From positions 1-64,000 of IMG/VR virus record IMGVR_UViG_3300032007_004013: a stretch of 64,000 bases of DNA, one strand, 5' to 3'. The notes below the pieces were generated by a model. The model was not told the DNA's origin, ran no database searches, and saw only the letters and a program-made list of their open reading frames with translations. The position numbers and the translations under genes are program-made. This document shows positions 25,442-62,074 of this stretch, one piece after another; position 1 is the stretch's first letter, and each line of letters begins with the position of its first letter. Source of the DNA: a virus. Lineage: Duplodnaviria > Caudoviricetes.

Positions 25442-25569
25442 AGCCGAACGACACGCCATTCGAGTTGCTCGCGTTGTTGTTGTTCTCGTTGCCGTTGTTG
25501 TTGACATTCGCAAAGTTAGTGGTGTTGGACGACCACGGGGAGCGCAGCCACCAATTGTTGGCGGAACCG
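25442..25569 (-). repeat. DGR template repeat (TR)
   Basis: 128 bp, 34 adenines (15 AAY codons), between avd and RT. Confidence 0.96.
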
Positions 25570-25623
25570 CAATGAGTCAACACGCAACTTAATAATCGTA
25601 CAGAACATAACCTGTAATTTGCT

Positions 25624-26052
25624 TTATTTCTTATTTCCGAACAGTTTCTTGTATCTTGCCGAATCGCTTTTAAGTACACCTTTTATCAAGTCAAGCTCTT
25701 TTCTAACTACAGGCATCAGCTTCTCAATTTCGTCAAGGTTGATGTTGTCTTTCAGCGCAATGAGAACTTCAAGCTGCGCGACAAGAAAATACGCCTTTCC
25801 TCGTGCCGTGAGGAAATAATCTCTGCGTCTTTGCGCTTCGTGCTGATTCGTGGGGTAAATCGAATTGCCCATTATCACATTCTCGAAAACATCTGTCGCG
25901 AGTTGCGATATTCTCTGACCTTTGTAGAACGTGAGTTTCTTTGGGATATTCTCGTCCTTCTTGCAAAACCGAGTGACTTTCACATCAAGCTCAAGTGCTG
26001 TTCTGAGGAACTCTGTATCTGCTACTCCTCGTAGGTATAATGGAACTGACAT
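25624..26052 (-). CDS. avd: DGR accessory variability determinant (Avd-like four-helix bundle)
   Basis: 142-aa basic helical protein, MSV...R...EF...IPK...Y pattern, between target gene and TR. Confidence 0.85.
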   Translation of the reverse strand: MSVPLYLRGVADTEFLRTALELDVKVTRFCKKDENIPKKLTFYKGQRISQLATDVFENVIMGNSIYPTNQHEAQRRRDYFLTARGKAYFLVAQLEVLIALKDNINLDEIEKLMPVVRKELDLIKGVLKSDSARYKKLFGNKK

Positions 26053-26070
26053 ATATTCTCCTTAAAAGCA

Positions 26071-26099
26071 ATATCTCGCTACACACGGTAGCGAGATAT
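26071..26099 (-). promoter_or_regulatory. DGR target-recognition hairpin downstream of VR1
   Basis: Perfect 12-bp stem ATATCTCGCTAC/GTAGCGAGATAT, loop CGTGT, 26 nt 3' of the TR-homologous end. Confidence 0.82.
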
Positions 26100-26111
26100 G
26101 AGATGGTAAGA

Positions 26112-29100: not shown

Positions 29101-32100
29101 CCGAATACTTCCGTATTCTTCTTGCTGTTGTTCATGTCTCCTGCAAAGTACAGGATAGTTTCGTCGGGCGCAAGCGTTCTTGCGCCGTTTACGCCGAGAA
29201 GCAGAGGTCTGTTGCTTGTGTTCTTGATGAACACAGCACACGGATGTCCTTCAACAGAATCTCTGCACTTGCTGTTCACGCTTTTCGCCTTTGAGACAAG
29301 CGGATTGAAAGCATTAAACAGCTCTGCCGAACACACGTTGTTGCAATGCTCTGATGAAGCTACATTCGCCTTCAGATTGAAATACTTCACAGGGATAGAG
29401 TTCGCAGACATCGCGTAGCCGTTAAGGATTGCGTCGGTGCTTGAAACCTTCATCGTGGTCTTCTTCATGTTGATATCGAGGTTTCCTGCACATTGACGGT
29501 AGTTCATAGAGCTTGTACCCTGCAAGGTGTAGAAAGCGTTATCAGCGTACCACTGATCTTCCGCAACGCCGTTGCCGATTTGGTGGATAATCTTACAGCT
29601 TGTGTTGCCGCCGCTTCCTTTATCTCCGGGGAATCCGCCTGTTTCGATCGTGATGATGTGGAGGGCAGGCGCTGCTACCATCAGCTTTTCAATGCTGATC
29701 GTGCCGTCGCTGTTGTAGATGTCGTTTCTCTCGTATCTTGCAAGCATTTCATCTACGTTTGGAGCGTCAGCGATGAAGTTCTGCATGATTTCTTTATCGA
29801 GAAGCGAAACTCTGTACATCTTGAAGCGATACACCCAAATATCACAGTCAGAGCTTCCGATTACAAAAGCATCGGGATTGCCCTGTACAAACTGCGTTTT
29901 TGTGCTTCCGGTGAGGAACGTGGTTCCTTTTGCAGGAGTTCCTTCAAGCCAAAACTTCATCGAAGATTTTGTCGGGTCGATGTTCAGACACATCTCAACC
30001 TGTCTGTTTTCGCAGTATTGGCATGTGATGTTGTTTCCTGCTCCGAACAATGCGTTGTGAGCGTACAGCTCAATTCCCATTCCGCTGTCATAGGAGTGGG
30101 CGATCTTTGTATCGTAGTTCGTGACGTTGGTTGTCTTGAAAATCATCGACAGGTGTTTACCCGTTCCTGTAACGCCTGTTTCGCCGTTGGTGTTATCACT
30201 TGCAAGGAACAGTGAACGGTCAAACGTGACACTTGTTCCTCTCTTGACTACGAAGGCGACTGCTCCGTTTTCGTCGCGCTGGAATCCGCCGTTATCCCAA
30301 TCAAAGTTCGCGGAATAGGTGAGTGGATGATTCGTTCCGCTGCTGTCTGAGTAACCGAAGTTTGATCTGTTTTCTTCTGAGTTGCTATGACCGGAGGGGT
30401 TCAGGTCCATGATGATTCCATCGGTGATCGGAGAAACATCTATGCCGATGGACTGAACGGTTACATCTATCTTCTTTGACACTGAACCTCTTACGGTAGT
30501 AATGCGAAGCTCTTTGTCGCCGAGAGTGGTCGGGCGGTATGTCCATATCTGAACATCTCTTCCGACGCTCAGACTTGACACAACGGTATTGTCTACTTTC
30601 TGAGTAACTGCGGAAACAGCATTTTCAGGGTCGTAGGCAATCCACTTAATCTCAACATTTTCGTACTGACGTGCAGCAAGTTCGTCCTTGAAGATGGCTA
30701 CAATAGGCGTGTTGTTTCCATCCTCAATCCATACGCCTGTGTGCTCAAGAGTCGGGACTTCGATAAGCTCTCCGTCAATCGTCATACTCATGCTGGCTTC
30801 GATAACGTGAGCGCCGTGAGTCTGAGCAGGTACTTGAATCGTAATAGGTCTGTTGTTGAGCGTAACGCCTTGCTGTGAGTAAACAGATGTGCCGTCTACA
30901 GTTACGGTAATATCTTTGCTACCTGCGCCTGACGGTGTAACTCTCAGTGTAAGCGGCTCACTTCCGTGGAAAGCAATGTCTGCTATATTCCAACTCAACG
31001 CAACATTCGACAAGGTGATCGTCCAAGTGAACGATTTTGTCGTTCCGTAGGCATCCTCTACAGTGAGCTTGACGGTGTTTGTCTCACCTGCAAGGTGAGG
31101 TCTGATATCGAAGCTATGCTGCGCTTGCGTGAGGTTTGTTTCGGTAGCTACGCGGTAATTGTTTACATACCAATACGCAGTACCATTACCTTGCGTAGGC
31201 TGGTTTGTATCAGCGTCAAGGCTCACCCACGACCAAAGCAAATTAAACTGCTCTGTTGTGGTGAGAACAGTCAACCTCGCTGACTGCATACCGTTGGTGA
31301 TTCTAACCTTTGAATCGGCAGCAGTACCGCTCCCGCTTCCGGCAGGAATGTCGAACGGTGTAAATCCTTCGATATCCTGATCGTTCAGCGTGAGGTGGAG
31401 CTTTCCGTCCTCGACGTAGCCTGAATCAAAGGCAAGTCCGCCTGTTCCGCTGCCGCTTCCAAGAGGAATCGGGTCGCCTACAGCATGACCGTTGCTGTAC
31501 AGAATCAGGTCGTTGTATTCTTCGTCGATATCAAAGCCGTCGATCAATGTTCTGTTCGACAAGCTGTTAAGGGCTGTAGATATCGCTGATACTGTATTAC
31601 TGAGAGCCGTTACGCTTGCTGTATCTGCTTTTGTCGTCAACTGAGTGTAAATATATGCGATGGCTTTAATCGCCAAATCAGCAGTGTTTCCGGCAGTTCC
31701 GTAATGGGCTGTTACGCCTTGCGGAATGGCTCCGCTATCAATCCTGAAGCTGCCTTCTTCTCTCGCAAAATATACATCAGTGAGATTGGGGCATCCGGCG
31801 AATGAGCCGCCGTCAACGCTCGTTACGTCCTTGTGAACATATATCGTTTTTGCTGTTCCTGAGAAATTGCCTGCCGACAAGGAATTGCCGTTGACAATCT
31901 TTACAGGTACGTTGTTTGCATCGAATCCGACACTCAAACAGTACCCATAGAGTGAAGCTGCATCGCTTGGAGAAATGACTTGCGTTTTGTTAGCTTTTTG
32001 GGCTATGGAAGTTTCAAGCGTGTCAACGATATCGTCAACGTCTTCGGCTGTGTAGTACGCTCTTAAAACAGCATAAACAAAAACCCTAACTGCGTTCGAG

Positions 32101-32777
32101 TTAGGGAAAAGGACATTATCCGCCGTTGTTGTTTGCTTGCTTACTGCGATCTCGCCGGATTTGTGCTCGACTTTCTCATAGGAAGCTGATTCAGCTCGAA
32201 TATCTGCAACCGCCGCGTTCGCTGTGTTCGCTGCCGTGTTTGCTGCGTCTTTTGCGTCTTCTGCATCCTGCACAACAGACGCAAGATCTTCTACAAGGTC
32301 GTTGATTTCATCCTCAGCTTCCGCAATAGCTTGTCTGCTGCTGTCTATCTCAAGAAACGCTCTTGTCAAGGTCGAAAGCTCGTTACTTGACTGTACAGAT
32401 GTACTCAACGCTCTCTCTTCAATCCTGAGTTTGCAGTTTGCAGATGACAGCAATGTTCCGTCAGCTTCGCTCGATATGACGAAATCAAGCGTACCTAAGC
32501 CCGGCGCTGCAAGAGCCTGTTCTGACAGCTTCGCTACAGCATATGATCTATCCTGAGCGATCTCGCAGGCATCATCATCCATAACGCTGTAACCATCTGG
32601 CTTTAACACCCTGATCGTCACCTTATGTCCTTCCGGGATAGTAACAGGCGCTTTGTTGTCCGTAAAGCGAACCTTGACATATCTGCTCACATCACACTGC
32701 TTCGCGTACACGATCGCGGTGTTGCTTTTCGCATTAAGGTCAAGCGTCACTTCGGAGATGTATTTCATCTCTGCCAT
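26112..32777 (-). CDS. Large tail adhesin / DGR target (BppU-like N-terminus, Ig/LamG-like, CotH-kinase-like, LRR, InlB-B/Flg_new repeats, C-terminal DUF6273/C-type-lectin-like domain)
   Basis: 2221 aa; AKQCDVSR..V..KPDG (BppU); YTVTFVN.DG..L....V...FTGW repeats; VR1 at the 3' end. Confidence 0.85.
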   Translation of the reverse strand: MAEMKYISEVTLDLNAKSNTAIVYAKQCDVSRYVKVRFTDNKAPVTIPEGHKVTIRVLKPDGYSVMDDDACEIAQDRSYAVAKLSEQALAAPGLGTLDFVISSEADGTLLSSANCKLRIEERALSTSVQSSNELSTLTRAFLEIDSSRQAIAEAEDEINDLVEDLASVVQDAEDAKDAANTAANTANAAVADIRAESASYEKVEHKSGEIAVSKQTTTADNVLFPNSNAVRVFVYAVLRAYYTAEDVDDIVDTLETSIAQKANKTQVISPSDAASLYGYCLSVGFDANNVPVKIVNGNSLSAGNFSGTAKTIYVHKDVTSVDGGSFAGCPNLTDVYFAREEGSFRIDSGAIPQGVTAHYGTAGNTADLAIKAIAYIYTQLTTKADTASVTALSNTVSAISTALNSLSNRTLIDGFDIDEEYNDLILYSNGHAVGDPIPLGSGSGTGGLAFDSGYVEDGKLHLTLNDQDIEGFTPFDIPAGSGSGTAADSKVRITNGMQSARLTVLTTTEQFNLLWSWVSLDADTNQPTQGNGTAYWYVNNYRVATETNLTQAQHSFDIRPHLAGETNTVKLTVEDAYGTTKSFTWTITLSNVALSWNIADIAFHGSEPLTLRVTPSGAGSKDITVTVDGTSVYSQQGVTLNNRPITIQVPAQTHGAHVIEASMSMTIDGELIEVPTLEHTGVWIEDGNNTPIVAIFKDELAARQYENVEIKWIAYDPENAVSAVTQKVDNTVVSSLSVGRDVQIWTYRPTTLGDKELRITTVRGSVSKKIDVTVQSIGIDVSPITDGIIMDLNPSGHSNSEENRSNFGYSDSSGTNHPLTYSANFDWDNGGFQRDENGAVAFVVKRGTSVTFDRSLFLASDNTNGETGVTGTGKHLSMIFKTTNVTNYDTKIAHSYDSGMGIELYAHNALFGAGNNITCQYCENRQVEMCLNIDPTKSSMKFWLEGTPAKGTTFLTGSTKTQFVQGNPDAFVIGSSDCDIWVYRFKMYRVSLLDKEIMQNFIADAPNVDEMLARYERNDIYNSDGTISIEKLMVAAPALHIITIETGGFPGDKGSGGNTSCKIIHQIGNGVAEDQWYADNAFYTLQGTSSMNYRQCAGNLDINMKKTTMKVSSTDAILNGYAMSANSIPVKYFNLKANVASSEHCNNVCSAELFNAFNPLVSKAKSVNSKCRDSVEGHPCAVFIKNTSNRPLLLGVNGARTLAPDETILYFAGDMNNSKKNTEVFGQTSQWDDENHQQCCIEFRENTYTRCTFKTSDFENEGWKEDGTDLPSHFEFRYPDGEGTQAMKDRFIEMHHWVNSTDPEQATNETLDVSDRFDIHVRDTAAYRRAKFKREVGDYFNLDNLLYYYLFTEFFLGVDQRAKNMFLSYEPDENDVWRWNLSKYYDGDTILGIDNKGQFRWGEAYSIEDTDGYTDEEDGNTHPYFNAAESVLFCNVRDCFQNELAVAYSVYENRKLFDAETLIEFFDEYQRQRPEALVIEDYAGKYDAPIENAGNTSWMENMEHGEKRPQREQFITYRELFISSKYVSAKAKSDLITYQAMPGANFSSALELTPYSDMYVGFLRDNTPAGSRRMTKGETAIVQCLDGNGDPFVLSAGEVNVQLFNGRNLMHVGGAANLYPGQVNITNGEKLRDLLLGGETYSSSNLKSLALNPADKPNVPLLRVIDLRGQSGISGALNLTRCNLLEEVMIAGTGTTDVYLPQSKILRKAILGTNVRTLHARNLPNLTSANFSCAGNSLTTILVEDSPGVPSDTLVANAPNLIRGRITNVNWSFADADVLTRLATLKGIDAEGNPIEEAGSFFLSGYAHINKITEDEIRTLIAAFPYLTFDYDQIVETYTVTFVNDDGTTLYTETVRAGNNAVNPVASGAIQTPTKTPTVDYQYTFTGWNGSLENINANTTLTATYNRSTRIFVVRYYDGSTLLETHNVETHGSCDYEGNDLSGPAGTIWMGFDNAAVNVVSDMDIHAQYITPTLPSSVPVSYDYLFSDNPNDNSAYTLAEFYGIIKANRCKDFFSKGDKVKILVSTNKFADTEIILRVEHFSHYKLADNSGNFAPVSFGMLGIMNATRQMNSGNTNVGGWRDCAMRNWLNNTAFPELPRHWKTMIAKVIVLSSQGNTSANIISSEDWLYLRSMAEVGFRTAENPYMYEVDSEAEDLKCSLFTDNNSRIKKYYNGTGSADNWWLRSPWSSNTTNFAIVTSNGYEYSNVASDSYGVSFGFSLA
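26126..26253 (-). repeat. DGR variable repeat VR1
   Basis: 128-bp match to TR with 11 mismatches, all at TR adenines. Confidence 0.96.
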
Positions 32778-49415: not shown

Positions 49416-50924
49416 TTACTTTGATTCTTTTCCTGCTGATTTTGTTTCCTTTGCGTTGACATCTTCCTTCTGCTTCTCCTTGTCTTCGTCTTCATCTCCG
49501 TTTGCGATCTTTGCGAAACCGAGGATTTCATTGTCTGAAACCCCATCCATTTCATCGCATATTTTCCTTGCTGTGATTTCGTCTTCACCGTACCACTTCA
49601 TTCTGTATTGGTACTTAGGCATAAGCTTTTGAGCGACTTCGTTTTGATCTCTCATTCGCTCAACTTCAGCGTCGATAACGATGCTGTCATCCCATACATA
49701 CGTTGTGTTGTACTTGCCGTTCGGAGCGAGATTGTAGAGGGTAGCGAGGGCATACATGGCGTAAACGAGATCGTCGAGAGCATACTCAAGCGACTTCTGA
49801 ATATCGGTAACAGTGGAATATGATCGCTGCTTGACTATCTTGATTTCCGTAGCGCTTCTTGCTACAGTGTCAACATCTGAGAGTGTTCCTCTCGACAAAC
49901 AGCAAGCGTCCTCTATCTGTAGGAGGATTCTGTTCAGACCTGACATGTAGTTGGCATCACGAAGGGACGGAGCCCATTCTTTCATTAAGCTGTCGGTGCT
50001 CGCGGTAGCAGAGTCGAGATTGTTGGTTCTGTACAATCGCTCTTTTCCTTTGGGGAGAACAGGCATTCCGTTTACTCTCCTGAAAGCGTCCTCAGCTGCG
50101 TCGATGGCGAGTTCACCGCCTTCGTACTCCCAAAGCAACCTACTGTACTGTTCGTCAGCGTCTTTGATAAGGTTGACTGCTCTTGCGTAAACAGAAACAC
50201 CGAGAGGCGAGTTTTTATCTACCGTATTGCCTATCGGAATTTTGAAGTAGGCGAAAAGCGGTGACTCTATATCGTTGATCGTTACTTCCGGTTCAATATC
50301 AGCCCAATCATCGACTTCTGAAAGCTGACACGGTGTACCAATCGCTTCTTCTACGGACGAAACATACGCTTTGTTCGTTATAGTGTAATCTGTTCCGTTG
50401 AGTTCATGGCGTTCAAGTCTGCTGTAGACTTTCCTACCCTTCCAACTGCGGTATAGGAAGTACGCGGCAGTAATCTTGCCGGAATTGTTGTACGCAAGAG
50501 GGCAGAAGTAATCAGCCTGAACAACCTCCGTGATTATTCTTCCGTCAGAAACATAGGGCTTGAAGACGATTCCGCCACCTGCACAGGCGTATTCCGTGTT
50601 GACCCTTATATTCTTTCTGACCGATTGGAGCTGATCGCTGATAAAATCAGCCATCTCGGAACCTGAGACGTTTACTTCCATTTCAAGTGTGACAGATCTC
50701 GCTATATCAGAAGCGATGATCGCAGGCAGACCAAGCGTGATGGGATTATTCTTTAACCATTTCGCTTCATTGGAGAACATCGCCAGCCAATTCGTTATAG
50801 CATCCATCATGTCTGTTGAAGCTATCGTCTGTTCTTTTGTGACTTCAGCGATGCTCCGCATTACATTTCCACCTTTGAACATCGTTCTTATCCTCCCGAA
50901 AAACTCTTTGATTCTTTCAAACAT
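49416..50924 (-). CDS. Portal protein (A118/SPP1-like)
   Basis: 502 aa after TerL; PLFAYFK.P..N..D..SPLGVSVY...IE..CCLS.GT...SATEI...WDDSI..D. Confidence 0.92.
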   Translation of the reverse strand: MFERIKEFFGRIRTMFKGGNVMRSIAEVTKEQTIASTDMMDAITNWLAMFSNEAKWLKNNPITLGLPAIIASDIARSVTLEMEVNVSGSEMADFISDQLQSVRKNIRVNTEYACAGGGIVFKPYVSDGRIITEVVQADYFCPLAYNNSGKITAAYFLYRSWKGRKVYSRLERHELNGTDYTITNKAYVSSVEEAIGTPCQLSEVDDWADIEPEVTINDIESPLFAYFKIPIGNTVDKNSPLGVSVYARAVNLIKDADEQYSRLLWEYEGGELAIDAAEDAFRRVNGMPVLPKGKERLYRTNNLDSATASTDSLMKEWAPSLRDANYMSGLNRILLQIEDACCLSRGTLSDVDTVARSATEIKIVKQRSYSTVTDIQKSLEYALDDLVYAMYALATLYNLAPNGKYNTTYVWDDSIVIDAEVERMRDQNEVAQKLMPKYQYRMKWYGEDEITARKICDEMDGVSDNEILGFAKIANGDEDEDKEKQKEDVNAKETKSAGKESK

Positions 50925-50937
50925 TGTCCGTCACCTT

Positions 50938-52890
50938 TTATATAAATCTCGCTGCTTCTCTCTCTATCGTGTACTCAAAGGCGTTGAGTGTACCCGTTTC
51001 AGAGTTTGCACTTCTACTGTCATCTGTGCTCTTTTCAGACCAAGTGGCAGTAGTAAAGGCTCTTGCAAGTGTTTCGCAATCTTCCGTAAGGAATAAGCGA
51101 TTCTGAGCAAAGAGCCTTGTTGTCAATCTTATTCTGTTGTTTACATCATCATCTGCCGCAGTTCGCACTGTGATCGGAATGTTGTACTTGTCAGCAGAGT
51201 CCCTGATACACTTGAACAGGAATCTTTCTTTTGAATCACAATAAGCGTAATCAAGCTTGTTGTGGCGCTTTTGGATCTCACGACAAAAATCATTAAATTC
51301 TTTGCCAAGAGCATTTGTTTCAACTTCTCCGGTAAATGTCTTTGAAGCCAAAACAACAACTCTCTTGTGATTTTCTATGATGGCTGTGGCAACGATGGAG
51401 GTTCCTGAAACGGAGCTTCCTATGCTTATGCCGATGTTCACCTGCATAATGTGCATAGCGTGTACAGCACTGATAGGAATAATGACGGTTTCTGCGTTGT
51501 CGATAAATCCGTTGTAAACCTTATTCTGAGTGAAGCAAGAAAGACCAACAGCGTCTCCTCTATCAGGTGACTTAATTCCTCTTGCTTTCATTTCTTTCTT
51601 GCTTTCAAGCTGTAGTCTGCCATTGCTTGATATATGGTATTTCCTAACAGACAGTTGAGCAACAAGTTCTTCGTCGTTAGGAATAGAGATAGCTCTGCTT
51701 TCCATCTTGTCTTTAACTGTTGCCCACATATATGTAGCAATGTCTCCGTAGTGTTCTTCAGAACCGTCTTGTGGAGGGTTCTTTCCGAAGTTGACAGGTA
51801 CTATTTCGAGCCGCCTTAACCGCTCCTCCACCTTAACTTCTTCAAGCCTATCTGTAACACCGCCGCCAAGACCTGTATCATCTATGTTGCAGGTGATAAC
51901 TCCTTTGTACTGCGGATAGTCTTTTACCAACTTCCTGTACTGTATTACAATGTCACCGACAGTAGCCATAAGGTTTTGTCCGTGCCTGATTACAGGGAGC
52001 TTTATCATTCCTCCAACATTGGTAGCGATAATGGTTTCATCATCTCCGTATCGAGCTACGTCAACACCAATGGAGATCCTGTCGATCTTCTCTATTTCGA
52101 TTTCGTTGATGATCGTTTGCTCGACGAGGGGGAGAGGAATAAATACATCGTCTTCTTGCGTAGGGAAATCTCCGAGAACACGGACCTTCACTACGTTGCT
52201 TTCTTCGCCATACTTTCGTATGAGAGTTTCTATGCTTTGTTTGTTTGTTCTTTTGCTGTAAAGAGAATTGACCTTGTGGCACTTGTAAAGCGCCCTATCT
52301 CTGTTGTGACTGTCATAAAACGCTCCTGTTGTTCTTGTAGGGTTTCCGCACATAAGGAGCTTGTTGTTTGCGCCTGTGAGCGTACCAAATACAGGCTCAA
52401 GGACTTCATCTGAAACACCGGATGCTTCATCAATGATGAACAACATGTTGTCTTCGTGGAAGCCTTGCATGTTCTCAGGCTTTGATGCTGTCTTTGCGAC
52501 AGCAAACCATCTGCTTTCGCAGCCGCGCATAGCAACGTGCGTTTTTGTCCATACAAGTAATGCGCTTGCGAGTTCGCTTCTATCTATCCACTTTCTGACC
52601 TCAGACCAGAGAACATCGCTTAACTGTTGAGCTGTAGGAGCTGTAGCGACCACTCTCGCGTTTTCAAAACACGATAAAAACCATATAATCAGATTTGCTT
52701 CAAGGCAGGTCTTTCCAACGCCTTGTCCTGATCGTACAGATACTCTCGGACTTGAAGCTATATCCAAAGAAACGTTCTTTTGCCATTCATCAGGATCGAA
52801 ATGCGTTACTTCGTCGAAGAACACTGTCGGTTTTTTCTGATAAATAGTCATTCTTTCGTTCAGAAAGGATTTTCTTTGATTCGACTTCAT
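50938..52890 (-). CDS. terL: Terminase large subunit with extra C-terminal degenerate nuclease domain
   Basis: Walker A SGQGVGKT, Walker B IIDEAS, coupling CGNP, nuclease GVDVARYGDD and SPDRGDA. Confidence 0.95.
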   Translation of the reverse strand: MKSNQRKSFLNERMTIYQKKPTVFFDEVTHFDPDEWQKNVSLDIASSPRVSVRSGQGVGKTCLEANLIIWFLSCFENARVVATAPTAQQLSDVLWSEVRKWIDRSELASALLVWTKTHVAMRGCESRWFAVAKTASKPENMQGFHEDNMLFIIDEASGVSDEVLEPVFGTLTGANNKLLMCGNPTRTTGAFYDSHNRDRALYKCHKVNSLYSKRTNKQSIETLIRKYGEESNVVKVRVLGDFPTQEDDVFIPLPLVEQTIINEIEIEKIDRISIGVDVARYGDDETIIATNVGGMIKLPVIRHGQNLMATVGDIVIQYRKLVKDYPQYKGVITCNIDDTGLGGGVTDRLEEVKVEERLRRLEIVPVNFGKNPPQDGSEEHYGDIATYMWATVKDKMESRAISIPNDEELVAQLSVRKYHISSNGRLQLESKKEMKARGIKSPDRGDAVGLSCFTQNKVYNGFIDNAETVIIPISAVHAMHIMQVNIGISIGSSVSGTSIVATAIIENHKRVVVLASKTFTGEVETNALGKEFNDFCREIQKRHNKLDYAYCDSKERFLFKCIRDSADKYNIPITVRTAADDDVNNRIRLTTRLFAQNRLFLTEDCETLARAFTTATWSEKSTDDSRSANSETGTLNAFEYTIEREAARFI

Positions 52891-53330
52891 CGATCAGAGT
52901 CCTTTTCATTGTTAGTTTTGCTTGCGTTCTTTACAGCGCTTATCCAATCATCAACAGCATTGTTGCTTTTGTCTTCTTTGAGCACGGTCCTCTTGTGCCT
53001 TTCCACTTCGAGCTTGAACTTCGGAGAAATGCCAGCCATTTCAACCAGAAAGTTCATCGCGTTTACATCTCCACCCATAGCTTTCAAGAAAGCTCGCGCC
53101 ATCATAGCTACAATATTGGTGTAATCTTCTTCATTATCAAGACCTAATGCTTCGAGATTTCGTGTTACAGTCTCCGTTGTCGGAAGTTCGAGAATTAGCT
53201 TTGCGGCGGATTTGGCATCTCGCTTCTTTCGTCTTGCGACTCCGCTTGCCTTTCCGCCTTTGGAGCGAATTTCTCTCTGTTCTTCCTCTGTTCGTTCGTC
53301 AAAGGGGATAAGGTTATCATCACGAGCCAA
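52887..53330 (-). CDS. terS: Terminase small subunit (putative)
   Basis: NLIPF.ERT.EEQREI..KGGKASG.ARR pattern, directly upstream of TerL; TTG start after GGAGG. Confidence 0.75.
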   Translation of the reverse strand: MARDDNLIPFDERTEEEQREIRSKGGKASGVARRKKRDAKSAAKLILELPTTETVTRNLEALGLDNEEDYTNIVAMMARAFLKAMGGDVNAMNFLVEMAGISPKFKLEVERHKRTVLKEDKSNNAVDDWISAVKNASKTNNEKDSDR

Positions 53331-53371
53331 ATCTATCACCTCCAAGCCGGAAACGCAGCAAAAAGCGGTAG

Positions 53372-54493
53372 TTATCTGACAACTTTGAGTTCGAGAGGCT
53401 CGTTGATAAAGTGGTTTTCAAGAGCTATCGTATAAGCTCCGCAGTTGGCAAATGTAAGCGTATCTCCAACAGATAATTCTCCCGTGAAACCTCTATAGAC
53501 TATATCGCTCTCCATACAGGAATAGCCGAGCAGATCGACTCCTTGAAGGGATATTTTCTTGTTCGATGTGTGAGAAACGTCCATCGGAGGGTTTGCTTTA
53601 CGGTTGGTAAATCCGAGGTCAAACATTGAGCAATCAAGCGTTACAAACTTTTGACCTCTTATCGTTTTGATGTTTGTAACGTGCGCTCTGAGTTTTATCG
53701 CGTTGGCGATCAACGGTGTTCCGAGCTCAAGGATAATCTTCGGTGCATTTCCATCAGGAAACTCTCTTGCCAATGCTTCTGCGGTTACTCTTGCATAATC
53801 GTCGAATGTAGGGATATTTCCGCCAAACCACTCTACGAGCCTTTCGTCCATAAACCCGTACATTCCGCTTCCTAAGTCGATGTAGCGAACGCCGAGCATC
53901 TTTCCGATGGAAGCCATCATATCTACACGCGGCTTGTAATATACAAGGTCTCTCGTACCGTATGCGTGGTTATGGATGCCTTTCAGTACGAGGTTGGTGC
54001 TCAATCCAAGAAAATCAATGCACTTGTAATAATCTTCGCTTTTGTACTCAATGCCGAATCGAGAGTTTATTCCGTTGCCAACGTCAATGTTGAGCCGGAG
54101 ACCGATGGGGAAGACGCTGTTTCTCCTGATAACCAACTGATTCTTCATCTTTCCTATGTAGTCGTCGATTTCGACAAGCTCGTCATAGTTGTCTACATTG
54201 ACAATTCCTCCGTTTACCAGAAGTAAGCACTTGCCGTGTGTGTCCGGTATAACGCCGTTGTAGATGATTTCTGAGCTTTTATACCCGATAGACAAAGCCT
54301 TGCAATATTCGTTCTTTGACACAACCTCTGCGTAAACTTCGTTTCTTCTTATCTCCTGAAGCACTTCATAGTGAGAGTTTGTCTTAAAGCTGTACGACAA
54401 AGCAAGATCAACGCCTGCTTCTTCGTATGCTCGCTTAACTTCTTTTACGTTTCTTTCGAGCACACGCTTACTAAAAAGATAGTACGCATTCAT
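53372..54493 (-). CDS. PLP-dependent decarboxylase (fold III, Orn/Lys/DAP family)
   Basis: YSFKTN (PLP lysine), EVVS..E, YNG..., H.H..G, IDLGSG, ELG, G.SC.E.D, GD.L.F.NCGAYT; start MNAYY. Confidence 0.88.
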   Translation of the reverse strand: MNAYYLFSKRVLERNVKEVKRAYEEAGVDLALSYSFKTNSHYEVLQEIRRNEVYAEVVSKNEYCKALSIGYKSSEIIYNGVIPDTHGKCLLLVNGGIVNVDNYDELVEIDDYIGKMKNQLVIRRNSVFPIGLRLNIDVGNGINSRFGIEYKSEDYYKCIDFLGLSTNLVLKGIHNHAYGTRDLVYYKPRVDMMASIGKMLGVRYIDLGSGMYGFMDERLVEWFGGNIPTFDDYARVTAEALAREFPDGNAPKIILELGTPLIANAIKLRAHVTNIKTIRGQKFVTLDCSMFDLGFTNRKANPPMDVSHTSNKKISLQGVDLLGYSCMESDIVYRGFTGELSVGDTLTFANCGAYTIALENHFINEPLELKVVR

Positions 54494-54504
54494 ATTAACC
54501 TCAT

Positions 54505-54541
54505 AAAAAAAGCAGCCGCACTTTCGTGAGACTGCTCTTTG
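54505..54541 (-). terminator. Rho-independent terminator-like hairpin
   Basis: AGCAGTC..CAC-GAAA-GTG..GGCTGCT followed by a T-run, between the RarA-C-like and decarboxylase genes. Confidence 0.6.
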
Positions 54542-54552
54542 CTGTTTTTTCG

Positions 54553-55248
54553 TTACCAAATTGGATCTTTTATTTCCATATCCTCACCGAAGTGAGTCGG
54601 ATCGAGTTCTCTTTGACGTTCAAAGTCCCTTACTCTCGGAATCGTTGCTCTGTCAATCCTTCCTTCGTCGATGTCTCTCTGGTTGGATATCTCCCAACTT
54701 CCGTTATCGAAAAGAGAGAGTTGCAACGGCTTCAATGCAGCTTGTTCATCAACGATCATGTCGAACTCTGTCTTGCCTTTTCTTCTTCCTTCGTAGGTGT
54801 GAACGTCAAAAACCCAATCGGGTACTCCTTCAACGCCAAGTTCAGCTTCATCTATGTTGCTGATGTATTCGTTCGGGATCTCTTCCGGTCTCAGCGTTCT
54901 TACCATACTCATAAAGTTGCAGGCTACGTAACAGGCATCCCTGTTCTTTCGAGCCATACATAAAAGCGTTACCGCTTTGCTGAGGAAGATCGAATCTCTG
55001 TCGTAGCCTTTTCTGCCTTTGTTTACGGTGTCGTCGGCTATCTTCAAAGCAACGATCTCCTTTGTCATCACTCCGTAGCAATCTTCAGCAGAGATTACAT
55101 AGAGGCGTTTCCAGAGATAATCAGGGAACTTACCTCTCAGTTCTTTGGCAGCAAAGGCTGCTCTGTTGATGTCTGCCCGTCTGATTGCTTTCTGAAGCAT
55201 ACTTGACATTGTGTACATACTGTAACCGCCGTCTGTCATTAACTTCAT
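54553..55248 (-). CDS. Stand-alone RarA/MgsA C-terminal-like protein
   Basis: SMLQKAIRR...A...LWKRL.VISAEDC resembles the RarA collar region; no Walker A/B motifs. Confidence 0.6.
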   Translation of the reverse strand: MKLMTDGGYSMYTMSSMLQKAIRRADINRAAFAAKELRGKFPDYLWKRLYVISAEDCYGVMTKEIVALKIADDTVNKGRKGYDRDSIFLSKAVTLLCMARKNRDACYVACNFMSMVRTLRPEEIPNEYISNIDEAELGVEGVPDWVFDVHTYEGRRKGKTEFDMIVDEQAALKPLQLSLFDNGSWEISNQRDIDEGRIDRATIPRVRDFERQRELDPTHFGEDMEIKDPIW

Positions 55249-55342: not shown

Positions 55343-56074
55343 TCAACGGTTTACTAATATTTTGGGAACGTTCTTGTTCGCGTTGTAATCAAAATACTTT
55401 CCCCACTTAGCTTTCATCATCTCAACTGACGCTGCGATGTCTTCTCGGTTGTAGCTTGATCCCGTGGTGTTCGTGATGTCATCTTCTTGCGGATTGTCAA
55501 CGAGGTACTTTGCGTTCAGGCACACTCTGTTAAGCAGAAGCTCCGTGAGAACATAGTCAATATCGGTGTTGCGAGGAAGTTCTGTGTCCATTCTCGCTTT
55601 GATACATTTTCTGTTCACTACCTTGAACGCTCCGGGGATCCCGTACCAGCCAAACTCGCTTGTATACACATAAGGAGTAGGTGTAGCGGAGCCAAAAGCA
55701 ACTCCAATATCGAGATCGTAGATAAGTTGGGCAAGACGTTCAAATTCAGCTTGGCACGTCTCTACATCATCAATAGAGTAGTTCCTCTCTAACCTGTAGA
55801 TGAAATTCTTTACATCATCATCTACTATCGCTACTACATCTTCTTCTGCGTTATCGACAATCCAATTATAGACTTTGGAATACTGATTGATTTCTTCGTC
55901 TTCAACTCCGATAACGTTAGGAAAACCTGCGTTAATGTAGAGCTGTTCCTGCGACTTTCTTACGATATGCTTTGGGTTTTCAAACCACTTTCCGGTGATG
56001 ACTCCTCTTTCGTACCTTCCTACTGACGGAATGTACACGCCAAAGGTGAAGTTACCATCTGCCACGAGGGACAC
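55343..56074 (-). CDS. TAGT/GREB1-like GT-A glycosyltransferase
   Basis: YIPS.GR N-terminal motif, VDDD metal-binding motif, DIDY.L..L, terminal ...KWG.Y. Confidence 0.75.
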   Translation of the reverse strand: MSLVADGNFTFGVYIPSVGRYERGVITGKWFENPKHIVRKSQEQLYINAGFPNVIGVEDEEINQYSKVYNWIVDNAEEDVVAIVDDDVKNFIYRLERNYSIDDVETCQAEFERLAQLIYDLDIGVAFGSATPTPYVYTSEFGWYGIPGAFKVVNRKCIKARMDTELPRNTDIDYVLTELLLNRVCLNAKYLVDNPQEDDITNTTGSSYNREDIAASVEMMKAKWGKYFDYNANKNVPKILVNR

Positions 56075-57131
56075 CGTCCTTTTCGTACAACGTGCCGTAG
56101 TTCCGCATTAACCTCATGCCGTATTCAGGCGTAATGTTTTCGTCGATTTTAATGCCAAGGGCGTGTTTGATACCAAGCTCGACAAGATTGAGACCGGCTT
56201 TGGCCGTGAGAGAAACGGTAGCGCTTATCCTCGGATTGATTTCGAGGAGGAAGAGCTTTCCATCATCTCTTCTGATGAAATCATATCCGATATTGCCGTC
56301 AAGCTCGAACAGCTCGTTGAGCTTCGTGACGATTTCGTTCGCTTCCTTGCTTTCGATCAACTCACAGTAGGTAGAAGTGGCAAATTCCATCTTCATATTT
56401 CTGTGAGTTACAGCGTACACGGTTCTTCCGTGATCTACGAGGCAAATGGTGCTTCCTTCTGTTCCGGAAACGTGTTCCTGAAGCATAAAATCTTCGCCGA
56501 TGTCGTCGATAGCAAGTTCAACCTGTGCTTTCGACGTGTACTTGTTAGCTCTGAGGTCTCTCGTTCTGGCGAAGACGCTTTTCTTTGCCATCTCGTCGTC
56601 GATGACTCTGAAGCCTGAAGCGCCGCAACCATCAACTCTCTTGATGCAGACAGGCTTGTCGGGATAACCGAGTGCGTAAAGCGCCTCCTCCCAATTATCC
56701 TTGTTGACCTTGATCGCTTTTGGCATATAGAAGAGGGAACGGCTTTCGAGGAATTGCATGAGCATGTATTTGTTGTTGGCGATGTCAAGCTTATCTTTGT
56801 TGCCGGAAAGAGAAACTTTAATGCCGTTCTTTTCAAAATCATCTCTGTGAAGACTGATGATGTCGATTTCGTCGCTGATAAGCGGTATCACAAGCTCAAC
56901 GCCTGTTGCTTTGCATATGCGAAGAAGCTCCGGAATGTATTCTTTGTCGTCGTATCTCGGAACTTTGCAGAGTACATCGACGTAATTAGCTGCGGCAGGA
57001 TTCGGGCTGCAATCCACGCCGATGATTTTGAAATCCAAATCTCTGCTTTTTCTCAACGTGTCTATGGTTCCGCAGGTGGGCCATCCGCAGCAAGCGGTGA
57101 ACAAAACGGTTACTTTTCTTTTGTCGATCAT
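56052..57131 (-). CDS. ATP-grasp ligase
   Basis: VLFTAC.G..IIGVD..P..D..Y...L...VIP....E; K, P..IK...G.GASG, QEHV.G.E, D....G...LLEINPR.SAT. Confidence 0.88.
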   Translation of the reverse strand: MIDKRKVTVLFTACCGWPTCGTIDTLRKSRDLDFKIIGVDCSPNPAAANYVDVLCKVPRYDDKEYIPELLRICKATGVELVIPLISDEIDIISLHRDDFEKNGIKVSLSGNKDKLDIANNKYMLMQFLESRSLFYMPKAIKVNKDNWEEALYALGYPDKPVCIKRVDGCGASGFRVIDDEMAKKSVFARTRDLRANKYTSKAQVELAIDDIGEDFMLQEHVSGTEGSTICLVDHGRTVYAVTHRNMKMEFATSTYCELIESKEANEIVTKLNELFELDGNIGYDFIRRDDGKLFLLEINPRISATVSLTAKAGLNLVELGIKHALGIKIDENITPEYGMRLMRNYGTLYEKDGVPRGRW

Positions 57132-57736
57132 TGTGTAGCTTCTCCTTTATTCTCTTCTTTGCCGAACAGTTTCTCTCTGATTTTGTGATACCAAACAGCT
57201 CTTCCTTGAATCTTTCTTTTGTTCGTAACGTATACAACAGCGCCTTGTATTCCGAGTTTGGAAACAAGTTCGTCGTAGTCAAAGGAGTCTTTGCAGGCTA
57301 TGAGAATGTAGTCGTATTTCTCGTAGTGAAGAAGCTCCATCTCGTTGATTTTTCTGTCGCCTACCTTTTTGTTGGATTCGGTGATTCCGAGATCTACGCT
57401 AAGATCAGCCGTCCAGTCAGCGAGCACATCGTAGTCCCATTCACCTGCGTGGGTGTTGGCTTTGATGTTGATTGCTCTCTTTTCGGCAGTTGAATAGCCG
57501 ACAATTCTTTTGCACAAAACAGTTGTGTCGGGGCTTTTCTCCAACAGAACACTGCACCGCTGATTTCCTGCGATGATGTTGTTGTCCTCGTCTATGACGA
57601 TAAGCCCAAAATCTCCAAAAGTGTCGAGCGAACGTTCAAGTTCATCTCGTTTGCCTTTGGAGATCTTTCTCGGATTGCCAAATCCGGTTTTGAGGTCGCC
57701 TACTTTTAATTCGACGACTTCAATGCTTTTTTTCAT
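57128..57736 (-). CDS. ParB/Srx N-terminal domain protein
   Basis: DLK....NPRKI...L.RSL..FG....IVID..N.IIAGNQR. Confidence 0.82.
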   Translation of the reverse strand: MKKSIEVVELKVGDLKTGFGNPRKISKGKRDELERSLDTFGDFGLIVIDEDNNIIAGNQRCSVLLEKSPDTTVLCKRIVGYSTAEKRAINIKANTHAGEWDYDVLADWTADLSVDLGITESNKKVGDRKINEMELLHYEKYDYILIACKDSFDYDELVSKLGIQGAVVYVTNKRKIQGRAVWYHKIREKLFGKEENKGEATQ

Positions 57737-57747
57737 TTGTATTCCTC

Positions 57748-58848
57748 CTATATCTGCTTTTCAGCAAGCTCAATGGCGTTTAATATAGTGTCGTCCATGT
57801 CGTAGTATCTGTAGTCTCCCGTCCTTCCTGCGAATATGATATTATCTTTTCCTTTTGATAAACGCTTGTATTCAGCGTATATGGCGTTGTTTACGTAATT
57901 GTTGATAGGATAGTAGGGTTCGTTGAGATCATCGTGTATGGCTGGATATTCGCGTGTAATCACCGTTTTACCGTTGTTGATGGGATTGGTGGAGAAGTGT
58001 TTGTGTTCAACTATCCTTGTGAACGGAATGTTTCTTTCGGTGTAGTTCACAACTGCGTTGCCTTGATAGTTGTCAACTCCTGAAATGGTTTCCTCTTCAA
58101 ATCTGAGCGATCTGTATTCCAGCCTACCGAACTTATAGTCAAAGTATTCGTCGATCTTGCCTGTATAGATAATCTTCTTTGCTATAAGTTCATATTCTTC
58201 CTTGAATGGCGTGTTGAGGATAACGTCTGCATTACTCAACAACTTGCTGAAGATTTCTGTGTAACCGTTTTTCGGGATTCCCTGATATCTGTCGTTGAAA
58301 TAATCATTCCTGTATGTAAACCTCAAAGGCAATCTGCTGATAATGTCAGGCGGCAGATCTGAACATTTTTTGCCCCATTGCTTTTCTGTATAGCCTTTTA
58401 CGAGCATGTTGTAAATCGTATCGCCTACAAGGGAGATCGCTTTCTCTTCGAGGTTCGATGGTGTTCCGGTGAAGCTGATGTCAGCTTTTATTCTTTCAAT
58501 CGCTTCTGCGGGAGATGTTACGCCAAATATCTTGGCAAACGTATTCATGTTGAATGGTAGGTTGTAACTTTGCCCTTCATAGATCGCTATAGGAGCGTTT
58601 ATGAACGGCGTAAACTTGGAGAAGGAGTTTATGTATTGCCAGACCTTTTCGCTATCTGTATGGAAGATGTGAGGACCGTATTTGTGTACATGTATTCCTT
58701 CGATCTCTTCCGTATAGCAATTACCGCCGATATGGTTCCTCTTGTCGATAACAAGACATCGTTTTCCGTGCGCTGATGCTATCTGGCAAAATACAGAACC
58801 AAACAACCCAGCTCCAACTATCAGAAAGTCGTAGCTCAAATGTACCAT
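57748..58848 (-). CDS. glf: UDP-galactopyranose mutase
   Basis: IVGAGLFG (FAD), RNHIGGNCY, HKYGPHIFHT, KQWG, RLPLRF, YQGIP, YRSL.F, YYP, GR.G.Y.YYDMD. Confidence 0.95.
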   Translation of the reverse strand: MVHLSYDFLIVGAGLFGSVFCQIASAHGKRCLVIDKRNHIGGNCYTEEIEGIHVHKYGPHIFHTDSEKVWQYINSFSKFTPFINAPIAIYEGQSYNLPFNMNTFAKIFGVTSPAEAIERIKADISFTGTPSNLEEKAISLVGDTIYNMLVKGYTEKQWGKKCSDLPPDIISRLPLRFTYRNDYFNDRYQGIPKNGYTEIFSKLLSNADVILNTPFKEEYELIAKKIIYTGKIDEYFDYKFGRLEYRSLRFEEETISGVDNYQGNAVVNYTERNIPFTRIVEHKHFSTNPINNGKTVITREYPAIHDDLNEPYYPINNYVNNAIYAEYKRLSKGKDNIIFAGRTGDYRYYDMDDTILNAIELAEKQI

Positions 58849-59080
58849 CTCCAAAAGCAAAAGCCGTCTGAGATAATTCCCAAACGGCTGATTTTCGACG
58901 ATACCATTGTAGCACCTGTAGTTGTGTCATTCAATTTCATTTGCTGACATTTACTATAAATCGCTATCATCTTCTTTTCTTTTTGTCACTTACTATCATT
59001 CACTATTATTCGTTATCATTTGCTCGCATAAAACTTTGCGCTTTAGTGAAGAATCACATAATTCTGGTGGGAAGTTTTCG

Positions 59081-59551
59081 TTATGCGTAGCCGCAAGTGA
59101 CGCCGATTTGTTCAAACTTCGGTCCGTGGTTTCCGTATTCAAGGACAATTCCTTTCTGAGGGTTACTCGCTATAACAAAGAAGTGGAGCATCGCCTCGTC
59201 AATCTTTTCGGGTATCATCATCTTGATGGCTGCTTGCAGACAATCTTCGAGAGTGTAGATGAAATCTCGTCTGTTTCCGTATTCAGTGTTGAATACTGTG
59301 ACCGATTTTCCTTCTCCAACAATCCTGATAATATCGTATTGGGCGAGGATAAAGTCATCGATAGCAAGGGTTCTGAGCATAGGAGCATTCCAGAGCTTTT
59401 TAAGCTTTTTCAGGAATCCAAGCGTGGCTTCATCATCTTTGCGTTTTGATCTGGAAAAGTAGCGCTTGCTGTGCAGCTTGTGTTCAAGTTTATCTATGCA
59501 AGCTGATAAGTCATCTGGTTCACGAAAAGCTCTTATCATTCGTTCCGGCAT
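59081..59551 (-). CDS. hypothetical protein
   Basis: 156-aa ORF in array. Confidence 0.65.
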   Translation of the reverse strand: MPERMIRAFREPDDLSACIDKLEHKLHSKRYFSRSKRKDDEATLGFLKKLKKLWNAPMLRTLAIDDFILAQYDIIRIVGEGKSVTVFNTEYGNRRDFIYTLEDCLQAAIKMMIPEKIDEAMLHFFVIASNPQKGIVLEYGNHGPKFEQIGVTCGYA

Positions 59552-60700: not shown

Positions 60701-61219
60701 CTATTTGTTCATTTTGTTCCATAATCGAATTACAACATTCTTTATTTGCGACTCTCTTGTTCCTGCGCCGCAATGATAACAATACGCAGCATAGATCGTA
60801 GTCTCTAAAAATGGATTAACAGATTTGCTTATGCGTATATCTGTGCTTCCGCACTCTTTGCACGGATTGAGCTTTGCAATATCTTTATCAATATACTCTC
60901 CTCCTGTCTCAATAAGGGACTCAATTTCGTGGAATGTGTATCTTCCAGCAAGCCTTTTCAGCCCGTCTCTGAGTTCGATCATCATTTTCTTGTTTTGATC
61001 GTCAACTATAACTGAGGTGGCTCGCATTTTGCAGTTGTCGCCTTTGTATCTAACAGGAATGAGTTCGCCTAATTCGCATGGAAGGGTTATCGTTCTTTCT
61101 TTATCACGGAAGTGGCAGCATGGTTTAGGGTATTCCGATTCAGTGAAAACTTCATATACGCCTGACGCGAATCCGCACACTTCTTTGTGAATGCAATCTT
61201 CACACGTTTTGTTATCCAT
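60701..61219 (-). CDS. hypothetical protein with C-terminal Lar-like zinc ribbon
   Basis: MDNKTCEDC..VC...LNPCKECG...CYHCGA...WN; start trimmed from 61390. Confidence 0.7.
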   Translation of the reverse strand: MDNKTCEDCIHKEVCGFASGVYEVFTESEYPKPCCHFRDKERTITLPCELGELIPVRYKGDNCKMRATSVIVDDQNKKMMIELRDGLKRLAGRYTFHEIESLIETGGEYIDKDIAKLNPCKECGSTDIRISKSVNPFLETTIYAAYCYHCGAGTRESQIKNVVIRLWNKMNK

Positions 61220-61487
61220 TCTTTTCTTCCTCAAGCTTTTTGGTAAGAGCGTAACCTTCAAGCTCCCACAGCTTGTTGGTGATTCGTTCCATACAAATAT
61301 CCTTGCCGATCTCCTCGTCGTAGTTGGCAGGATCAACGGCTGCGCTTGATTCTGTGATAACAAATCCGTTCGGAAGCTTGCAGCATACAACCGTAGCTTT
61401 GCCGTAAACGGTCCTTACGTCGATTTCTGAGTTCGCAATCAAATCCTTGATCTGCTGCTCTGTTACTGTGTTTTTCATAACTTTCAC
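61212..61487 (-). CDS. Gp49/Gp66-family phage protein
   Basis: TVVCCKLPNGFVI.ESSA.VDP.NYD.EIG..IC..RI.NKLWELEGY. Confidence 0.85.
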   Translation of the reverse strand: MKVMKNTVTEQQIKDLIANSEIDVRTVYGKATVVCCKLPNGFVITESSAAVDPANYDEEIGKDICMERITNKLWELEGYALTKKLEEEKNG

Positions 61488-61489
61488 CT

Positions 61490-62074
61490 TTAACCTTTCT
61501 TGTTGATATATTCTGAGAAGACAGGCATATCAAAGCAATCTTCATACGCCGCGAGCCTGCTCCTTAATTCCGCTGCCTGAACTGCTACAGTGTAGCAAAC
61601 GCCGTAGATACAATCTCCTGCATTGCACTCTATGCAAGCACCATCTTCTATTGATTCTGCGCTTACTCCGCAGTGTTCTTTTGCTTCTTGCGCTATGTAT
61701 TCGCACAAGTCCATGTCGTCTTTTCCGTTCGCGTGTCGTAACACAACGCGTCCGTCTTTTGCATAAGCGTAATTCATCATTGCGCTTGTGTAGTTATCAG
61801 GTTCTTCTTGCGTGAGCCTGTAGGGGAAGTTGGGGAGAGCAGACAAGTCTTCAACCCTGTTATTCCACATCTCGATAGCTTCTTCTCTGTCTTTCGCTGA
61901 CATACAACAAGTGCAGTTACACTCAACGAAACATTCACCTTCGCAATCTGGCAAGCCGGGCAGCATGTGCGTATGAGGCTGTATTTCGTTTAGATATGGC
62001 GTTCTTCCGCAAAACGGACACGGCTTTAATTCATTTTCCATTGTCAACCTCCCTTTACTTGTGAAATATAACAC
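61490..62074 (-). CDS. Lar-like restriction-alleviation zinc-ribbon fusion protein
   Basis: ELKPCPFCG...C...EAIEMWN.R; likely start MENELK at 62041. Confidence 0.7.
   Translation of the reverse strand: MLYFTSKGRLTMENELKPCPFCGRTPYLNEIQPHTHMLPGLPDCEGECFVECNCTCCMSAKDREEAIEMWNNRVEDLSALPNFPYRLTQEEPDNYTSAMMNYAYAKDGRVVLRHANGKDDMDLCEYIAQEAKEHCGVSAESIEDGACIECNAGDCIYGVCYTVAVQAAELRSRLAAYEDCFDMPVFSEYINKKG

Follow-up and report, generated by a model that had tools for sequence, protein, structure and literature searches.

A ParB-like, glycosyltransferase and RarA-C-like core with interchangeable sugar cassettes upstream of phage terminase genes: a candidate DNA glycosylation module

Hypermodification of their DNA is one of the main ways in which phages escape restriction and CRISPR nucleases, and it supplies enzymes to biotechnology. 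To our knowledge, every characterised route of DNA glycosylation begins with 5-hydroxymethylcytosine (5hmC), 5-hydroxymethyluracil (5hmU) or 5-hydroxycytosine (5hoC). We analysed six adjacent genes in the IMG/VR provirus record IMGVR_UViG_3300032007_004013 (Duplodnaviria, Caudoviricetes; 84,019 bp, about 91% complete by estimate), bases 1-64000 of which form the 64,000-nt stretch called the window below. The six genes lie in one direction on the minus strand and encode, in order, a uridine diphosphate (UDP)-galactopyranose mutase (Glf), a ParB-like protein, an ATP-grasp ligase, a glycosyltransferase (GT), a protein resembling the C-terminal domain of RarA/MgsA (RarA-C-like) and a pyridoxal phosphate (PLP) decarboxylase; the small terminase (terS), large terminase (terL) and portal genes follow. 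On balance, we incline to read them as a late, packaging-linked, post-replicative DNA glycosylation module. Its defining core is the trio of ParB-like protein, GT and RarA-C-like protein, and the remaining genes are interchangeable sugar cassettes.

The nearest described systems are the ParB-dependent pathways of the phage T-dioxygenases (5mYOX). ParB homologues without a DNA-binding domain activate these enzymes on double-stranded DNA (O'Toole et al., PNAS 2026, PMC13229309), and 5mYOX pathways co-occur with GTs in 31%, with ParB in 27% and with terminases in 19% (PMC13229309). The module resembles them in that a putative ParB homologue with no evident DNA-binding domain stands beside a putative DNA-modifying enzyme, with GT and terminase neighbours and an apparently post-replicative logic. 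Unlike in those clusters, 5mYOX/TET-JBP was detected neither in this genome nor among 88 related records, in a search without a positive control, and the invariant third partner is the RarA-C-like protein. Phage GTs directed at 5hmC were validated by Pyle et al. (bioRxiv 10.1101/2023.12.21.572611). The window shares with such clusters (see also Burke et al., PMC8256090) GT-A enzymes, ParB-like proteins, terminases and sugar-tailoring enzymes, but the validated 5hmC pathways rely on a methyltransferase and a 5mYOX. For about 65% of the GT contigs no base-modifying neighbour was noted, and these were left aside because a link to DNA was not obvious (10.1101/2023.12.21.572611); the module fits this unexplained group and brings to it a conserved signature of three genes.

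Glf has also been met in phages. That of Rhizobium phage RL38J1 was proposed to supply UDP-galactofuranose for glycosylated 5hoC (NAR 2026, PMC13326640), and furanose sugars were found on DNA in the glycosylated 5hoC pathways (RB69, DLP3, RL38J1; PMC13326640). The 5hoC phages are lytic, make 5hoC pre-replicatively by a thymidylate-synthase homologue and use GT-B-type transferases, whereas the window phage is temperate, has no ThyA homologue and appears to use a GT-A enzyme of the TAGT clade. In thymidine hypermodification, PLP decarboxylases act on DNA-attached amino acids and leave an amine (Lee et al., NAR 2021, PMC8989533), a step that may be analogous to the work of the ATP-grasp and decarboxylase pair in the window. 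There the amino acid is joined to 5-hydroxymethyldeoxyuridine by a kinase and an amino-acid:DNA transferase, neither of which is present here; the ATP-grasp ligase would take their place, and the attachment point would be the sugar. A first-pass annotation of the window had known of no phage pathway with such a combination of genes. No paper describing the ParB-like, GT and RarA-C-like trio was found, but related ParB/dioxygenase/GT pathways (PMC13229309), GT clusters (10.1101/2023.12.21.572611) and a phage Glf (PMC13326640) have been published.

The distribution of the module was determined from three scans. The IMG/VR scan anchored on the GT confirmed relatives in 112 viral contigs, the IMG/VR scan anchored on the RarA-C-like protein did so in at least 218 contigs, and 37 loci came from a scan in which each prokaryote species was represented by one genome. 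After de-duplication 89 non-redundant loci with enough flank remained, and presence was counted in these. The ParB-like gene was present in all 89 loci and the RarA-C-like gene in 88. ParB-like genes also stood beside the GT in 37 of 37 cellular genomes, and the GT was carried by 70 of the 76 loci of the RarA-C-like-anchored scan. The module is common, and the RarA-C-like protein forms more than 460 protein clusters. In nearly every locus terS/terL follow the module directly, and the terminases concerned belong to several unrelated families.

The other genes were much less constant. Glf occurred in only 8 of the 89 loci, each time with ATP-grasp, which itself was found in 26; 22 of these 26 also had the PLP decarboxylase (22/89). 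The first-pass annotation had expected its genes to co-occur in related phages, which they do, but Glf, ParB, ATP-grasp and GT, which it took as the defining set, are not the core. A PIG-L deacetylase with a WbqC-like protein was the commoner cassette (about 60 of 89), often accompanied by a PglF-like 4,6-dehydratase, a DegT aminotransferase or a PglD-like acetyltransferase. Genes for bacillosamine-type nucleotide sugars adjoin the core in the late operons of many related phages (for example L013:4439-6625 and L035:5998-6636). Six of the 89 loci were free of any cassette, and the bare three-gene form is seen, for instance, in loci L152-L157. This pattern of a constant core with varying donor and tailoring cassettes, which often build amine-bearing sugars, argues for DNA as the target.

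All 37 cellular hosts were gut or rumen anaerobes (Lachnospiraceae, Oscillospiraceae, Ruminococcus, Treponema, Bacteroides/Parabacteroides). The complete six-gene set was found again in Bacteroides, Parabacteroides, Treponema and Ruminococcus, and a prophage of Selenomonas ruminantium TAM6421 carries the module. The host range as a whole covers gut and rumen Bacillota, Bacteroidota and Spirochaetota together with cultured actinobacteriophages. Among 50,697 cultured phage records no match was obtained by megablast of the cluster or tblastn of the GT, and the cultured relatives were reached through the RarA-C-like protein only. These are the Microbacterium cluster EC phages (Quhwahvirus), whose genomes are circularly permuted and carry the trio at the right end. 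In phage Jayden the order is gp83 (ParB-like), gp84 (GT), gp85 (annotated 'UDP-glucose dehydrogenase') and gp86 (annotated 'AAA-ATPase', the RarA-C-like protein), that is, the same order of ParB-like protein, GT, sugar-nucleotide enzyme and RarA-C-like protein. Jayden gp86 is 40% identical to the window protein, and gp83 is 29% identical over its full length (E 9e-16); gp84 was aligned to the window GT by hhalign with an E-value of 7.8e-5 and with the DDD motif in register. Unlike the window phage, the cluster EC phages are lytic, infect an aerobic actinobacterial host and have a UDP-glucose dehydrogenase annotated as accessory gene. The module was also considered as an anaerobe's substitute for the O2-dependent 5mYOX, and this was rejected because the same core occurs in phages of the aerobic Microbacterium. 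A sample of 400 Clostridia genomes was uninformative for the oxygen idea, with TET/JBP in 0 of 400 and this GT in the centre genome only.

The genes of the module and its surroundings in the window are as follows.

57748..58848, minus strand: glf, UDP-galactopyranose mutase, 366 aa (PF03275, TIGR00031)
57128..57736, minus strand: ParB_N-like protein, 202 aa (phrog_620, phrog_498, PADLOC MTase_II N-terminus)
56052..57131, minus strand: ATP-grasp ligase of PylC-like / Ter-operon type, 359 aa (ATPgrasp_Ter, PylC-like_N)
55343..56074, minus strand: GT-A glycosyltransferase, probably of the TAGT clade, 243 aa (sub-threshold TAGT, phrog_842, AlphaFold2 (AF2) model)
54553..55248, minus strand: RarA/MgsA-C-terminal-domain-like protein, 231 aa from M23, in an open reading frame (ORF) open to 55314 (phrog_16866, 2r9g profile)
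53372..54559, minus strand: fold-type III PLP decarboxylase of the Orn/DAP/Arg family, 395 aa (Orn_Arg_deC_N, Orn_DAP_Arg_deC)
52887..53345, minus strand: small-terminase-like gene, 152 aa (phrog_2412 2e-24, weak DUF5681), overlapping the terL start by 4 nt
50938..52890, minus strand: large terminase subunit, 650 aa (phrog_5902 2e-72; phrog_2 terminase large subunit 7e-39)
49416..50924, minus strand: portal protein, 502 aa (phrog_533 7e-120)
58862..58934, minus strand: promoter-like site (TTGAAT-17-TACAAT with TG, 58934-58906), then a strong terminator-like hairpin with a 12-bp stem (58889-58862), directly upstream of glf

The six genes are tightly packed. The ParB-like and ATP-grasp genes overlap by 4 nt, the ATP-grasp and GT genes by 23 nt, and the RarA-C-like and decarboxylase genes by 7 nt; glf and the ParB-like gene are 11 nt apart, and the gaps within the run from the six genes to the terminase are 11-94 nt. 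The first-pass annotation had listed four of these ORFs, from glf to GT, as one tight operon ahead of terS/terL. The genes, their junctions and the terminase neighbours were all found as described, but the unit comprises six genes, the RarA-C-like gene and the PLP decarboxylase gene (the partner of ATP-grasp) having been overlooked. The promoter-like site and hairpin could possibly represent a late-operon promoter with an antitermination-type leader; they match a consensus only, such matches are no more frequent than in shuffled sequence, and the site is a lead rather than a finding. Nearly every gene of the record is on the minus strand. By gene content the phage is temperate, with a large serine recombinase (81174-82925), a CI-like helix-turn-helix (HTH) protein, RecT and a DnaC-like loader, and the host gene queA (82994-84019) flanks the prophage. 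Genes for a DNA polymerase or nucleotide metabolism were not seen in the prophage record. A PADLOC scan gave no defence-system match except the methyltransferase-type N-domain of the ParB-like protein.

The GT belongs, according to its model, to the structural clade of TAGT and beta-glucosyl-HMC-alpha-glucosyltransferase enzymes and not to the cell-wall GT families. Against PHROGs it matched phrog_842, 'beta-glucosyl-HMC-alpha-glucosyltransferase', with an E-value of 4e-8. The DDD motif (D85-D86-D87) is invariant in the compact family of its relatives, among which TAGT was the only Pfam GT family matched (17 of 22 members at E<=0.01, best 1.3e-6); several relatives in the databases carry a precomputed match to PF20691. 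Homologues point to a start three codons further in than the annotated one. The AF2 model is a confident GT-A fold with a predicted local distance difference test score (pLDDT) of 86. Its best matches among the BFVD viral structures were TAGT-domain proteins, including one of Ralstonia phage phiRSL1, and a Klebsiella phage beta-glucosyl-HMC-alpha-glucosyltransferase, with template modelling (TM) scores of 0.69-0.80 and E-values down to 5e-14. The GT-A fold and the DxD motif are features that it shares with the clade of TAGT, base-J glucosyltransferase and T-even enzymes (PF20691, phrog_842). The first-pass annotation had called the GT TAGT-like and had allowed that it might instead resemble cell-wall or protein GTs. 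The fold bears out the former, with only generic GT-A chains matched in the PDB at TM 0.45-0.57, and the latter is not the case, because the structural matches are to TAGT and TAGT is the only Pfam GT family found.

The top PDB match was AvpGT, a nucleoside (Ara-A) GT, with an E-value of 1.6e-6. This match, and the lack of an acceptor-making DNA enzyme, would suit a GT that acts on a free nucleotide, nucleoside or small molecule, either in precursor modification or by inactivating a host immune signal or nucleoside toxin. Such a target appears quite improbable. At TM 0.54 and 15% identity, the AvpGT match is a weak one of the kind that GT-A enzymes give in general, and the TAGT-clade matches are much better. 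The prophage has no visible polymerase or nucleotide-metabolism genes with which to handle modified precursors, and its ParB_N-like and RarA-C-like partners are better suited to polymeric DNA.

The ParB-like protein matched phrog_620 (2e-22), phrog_498, the ParB-like N-terminus of phage DNA methyltransferases (8e-20), and the MTase_II N-terminus of PADLOC (8e-6). The closest Atlas clusters carry ParB_N and N6_N4 methyltransferase fusions. An N-terminal ParB/Srx-like domain (about residues 1-134, with GNPR and AGNQR motifs) is followed by about 55 conserved aa that form a C-terminal domain, and at 202 aa the protein would seem too short for an HTH beside these two domains. The N-domain is of the type fused to phage DNA methyltransferases, and this, together with the obligate linkage of the ParB_N-like gene to the GT, argues for DNA as the target.

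The RarA-C-like protein matched phrog_16866 with an E-value of 1e-35. Its residues 1-115, approximately, correspond to the all-alpha C-terminal helical domain of RarA/MgsA (PDB profile 2r9g at 1e-4). Compared with C-terminal fragments of MgsA, it gave Foldseek TMt values of 0.74-0.86 and VIA Z scores of 10.2-11.4 with root-mean-square deviations of 1.5-2.3 A over 84-96 residues; the next-ranked VIA matches were clamp-loader collar domains with a Z of about 6. An AAA+ module was not matched anywhere in the 231 aa. A conserved motif, PDWV[FY]DxHTxxGKxxGKT, is present at the C-terminus. Since RarA/MgsA is associated with replication, possession of its C-terminal domain also argues for DNA as the target. 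In most PIG-L/WbqC-type loci the protein is longer, with 315-407 aa (for example L014:8826-10049, L050:8783-9895 and L004:10774-11931), and these forms are internal tandem duplications in which the N-terminal half retains the N-domain motifs and the C-terminal half the HTxxGK motif. Because the motif halves are kept asymmetrically in the duplicated forms, the comparison suggests that the short forms work as dimers with a composite site.

Two other assignments of the RarA-C-like protein were rejected. It is not the small terminase, because many loci have a separate terS after its gene; genes intervening before the terminase, and its position upstream of ParB in loci L080 and L086, rule this out as well. 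Four conserved cysteines had prompted the idea of an Fe-S cluster, which is unsupported, as C106 is Asp in about one quarter of the sequences; several motifs flanking the cysteines are presumably common to RarA sequences. Arthrobacter phage KellEzio has a distant MgsA_C-like gene without GT or ParB neighbours.

Of the accessory enzymes, Glf was assigned most firmly. It matched PF03275 (1e-73), NAD_binding_8 (9e-22) and the equivalog TIGR00031 with 401.6 bits against a cut-off of 303.75; the match was full-length, and the FAD-binding Rossmann motif GAGLFG is present. By these sequence matches it is a true UDP-galactopyranose mutase equivalog, a maker of UDP-galactofuranose, as had been proposed for it before. 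A TTG about 9 nt downstream, behind GGAG, may be the true start of glf. The ATP-grasp protein scored 65.1 bits with ATPgrasp_Ter (cut-off 29.1; 7e-18) and 62.8 bits with PylC-like_N (cut-off 27; 3e-17); against the NCBIfam equivalogs it fell beneath every cut-off. The PLP decarboxylase scored 56 bits with Orn_Arg_deC_N (cut-off 23.4) and 28.4 with Orn_DAP_Arg_deC (cut-off 23). Its nearest NCBIfam models were lysA (101.9 against 297.9) and the N-citrylornithine decarboxylase FslC (73 against 500), so that no equivalog was reached.

Enzymes such as Glf, WbqC, PglF/E/D-like proteins and PIG-L are typical of surface-polysaccharide pathways, and glycan-modifying morons are frequent in temperate phages. 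The module might accordingly serve lysogenic conversion, blocking superinfection by placing galactofuranose on an envelope glycan of the host (teichoic acid, O-antigen or capsule), which seems to us very improbable indeed. Transmembrane segments were not predicted in any of the six proteins, and no flippase or Gtr-like partner was found. The genes are part of the late packaging string, well away from the integrase/repressor end, and the GT is placed in the TAGT clade. Strictly lytic Microbacterium cluster EC phages have the same core. The solubility of all six proteins, the late position of the genes and the sharing of the core with lytic phages speak against the surface-glycan explanation. 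The absence of transmembrane segments and the position directly upstream of terS/terL argue for the DNA reading instead.

In that DNA reading, the six genes would be the first block of the prophage late gene string, and the DNA would be hypermodified just before packaging. The TAGT-clade GT would be the transferase of a three-part conserved engine. By analogy with the ParB partners of T-dioxygenases, the ParB_N-like protein may load the enzyme onto double-stranded DNA or activate it there, and the RarA-C-like helical protein could be an oligomeric scaffold or a subunit presenting the DNA or acceptor. Glf would turn host UDP-galactopyranose into UDP-galactofuranose as the probable donor. The ATP-grasp ligase would then couple an amino acid to the sugar, and its decarboxylation by the PLP decarboxylase would leave an amine; phages M6 and ViI may offer a parallel, as their PLP decarboxylases sculpt amino-acid conjugates on the DNA.

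Several points weigh against this reading. From the gene identities, folds, synteny and co-occurrence observed here, we infer DNA as target, the donor, the order of steps and a role in evading restriction or CRISPR nucleases. Unlike the TAGT clade, the window GT remains under the Pfam cut-off, its match to TAGT (PF20691) having an E-value of 6e-4 and 20.2 bits where the gathering cut-off is 27.5 bits. The ParB assignment comes from remote-homology libraries, and searches with Pfam ParB_N and PDB profiles gave no match. We know of no characterised TAGT-clade enzyme that does not require a hydroxyl acceptor made by a partner enzyme. TET/JBP (PF12851) was found in none of the 88 related viral records (0/46 and 0/42; 28 of the 88 at least 90% complete), nor in this genome or Jayden, in a search that had no positive control. 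Thymidylate-synthase homologues (PF00303) were absent from all 28 near-complete relatives and from this genome in a search that finds its controls, and a C5-methyltransferase was present in 1 of the 28. The window had been said to contain no TET/JBP or hydroxymethylase. This extends to the whole 84-kb record, in which no C5-methyltransferase, TET/JBP or thymidylate-synthase homologue was found. Because these searches were empty or nearly so, the module phages would seem to lack all three routes by which a glycosyl acceptor is known to be made. The GT was never seen with TET/JBP or a hydroxymethylase, so that 5hmC or 5hmU should not be taken for granted as its acceptor. A 7-deazaguanine pathway, with a radical SAM gene as QueE, was also considered and rejected, as the protein is PA0069/Rv2578c-like and no Que genes are nearby. 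This 240-aa protein of the PA0069/Rv2578c or 'mobile pair' type is encoded on the minus strand in the early region (genome 68271-68993; L002:4252-4974).

The late site beside structural genes would suit glycosylation of virion proteins equally well. The GT would then decorate capsid, tail, portal or terminase with a tailored glycan, which has been proposed or demonstrated in some actinobacteriophages, and the ParB-like and RarA-C-like proteins would have unrelated accessory roles in packaging. GT genes among the structural genes of cluster O mycobacteriophages have led to a proposal of capsid modification (PMC4351075), diversified glycans could mask the virion surface, and the module does lie in the late region beside packaging and head genes, with no DNA acceptor-generating enzyme found. 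We nevertheless consider modification of virion or packaging proteins unlikely. The GT matches the DNA-GT (TAGT) clade and not the GT2-type protein or polysaccharide families, its linkage to ParB_N-like (89/89) and RarA-C-like (88/89) proteins is obligate and extends over different capsid and terminase types, and both of these partners have DNA-associated homologues. The GTs of phage Corndog sit between portal and protease and not beside its ParB-like gene (PMC4351075).

The missing acceptor enzyme could also be accounted for within the DNA reading. The trio may be a self-sufficient DNA-glycosylating machine that does without a 5-hydroxymethyl- or 5-hydroxy-pyrimidine precursor, either because the GT acts on a canonical position or because the RarA-C-like protein is a new acceptor-generating or base-presenting factor in the place of 5mYOX. 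We put this forward tentatively, as a possibility that is rather doubtful at present.

Further features were noted in the window. Upstream of the module, two adjacent ORFs on the minus strand (60701-61390 and 61490-62074) encode Lar-like restriction-alleviation zinc-ribbon proteins (PF14354, 3.4e-7 and 1.4e-3) and may provide a second anti-restriction function. The ORF at 59081-59551 (156 aa), upstream of the promoter-like site and hairpin, had no family match. A diversity-generating retroelement lies on the minus strand (24057-26253 and 26112-32777), with a reverse transcriptase gene at 24057-25298 (RVT_1, 3e-12), a 132-nt template repeat at 25438-25569 and a variable repeat at 26122-26253, at the 3' end of a tail-fibre-like ORF of 2221 aa. 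The repeats are 91% identical, and 11 of the 12 mismatches are at adenines of the template copy. The endolysin (20147-22399, minus strand, 750 aa) is a multidomain protein with Peptidase_M15_3, a GH25 muramidase and two PG_binding_1 domains.

If the module modifies DNA, it would be a new entry point to DNA glycosylation with combinatorial sugar decorations, and it would help to account for the large share of phage GT clusters that were left aside as having no base-modifying partner. Should the reading without a precursor hold, it would represent a new class of DNA modification chemistry, with cassettes that give galactofuranosyl, aminoacyl-amino-sugar and bacillosamine-type adducts. The cultured cluster EC phages (SEA-PHAGES) and their non-pathogenic host Microbacterium foliorum make the module directly testable.

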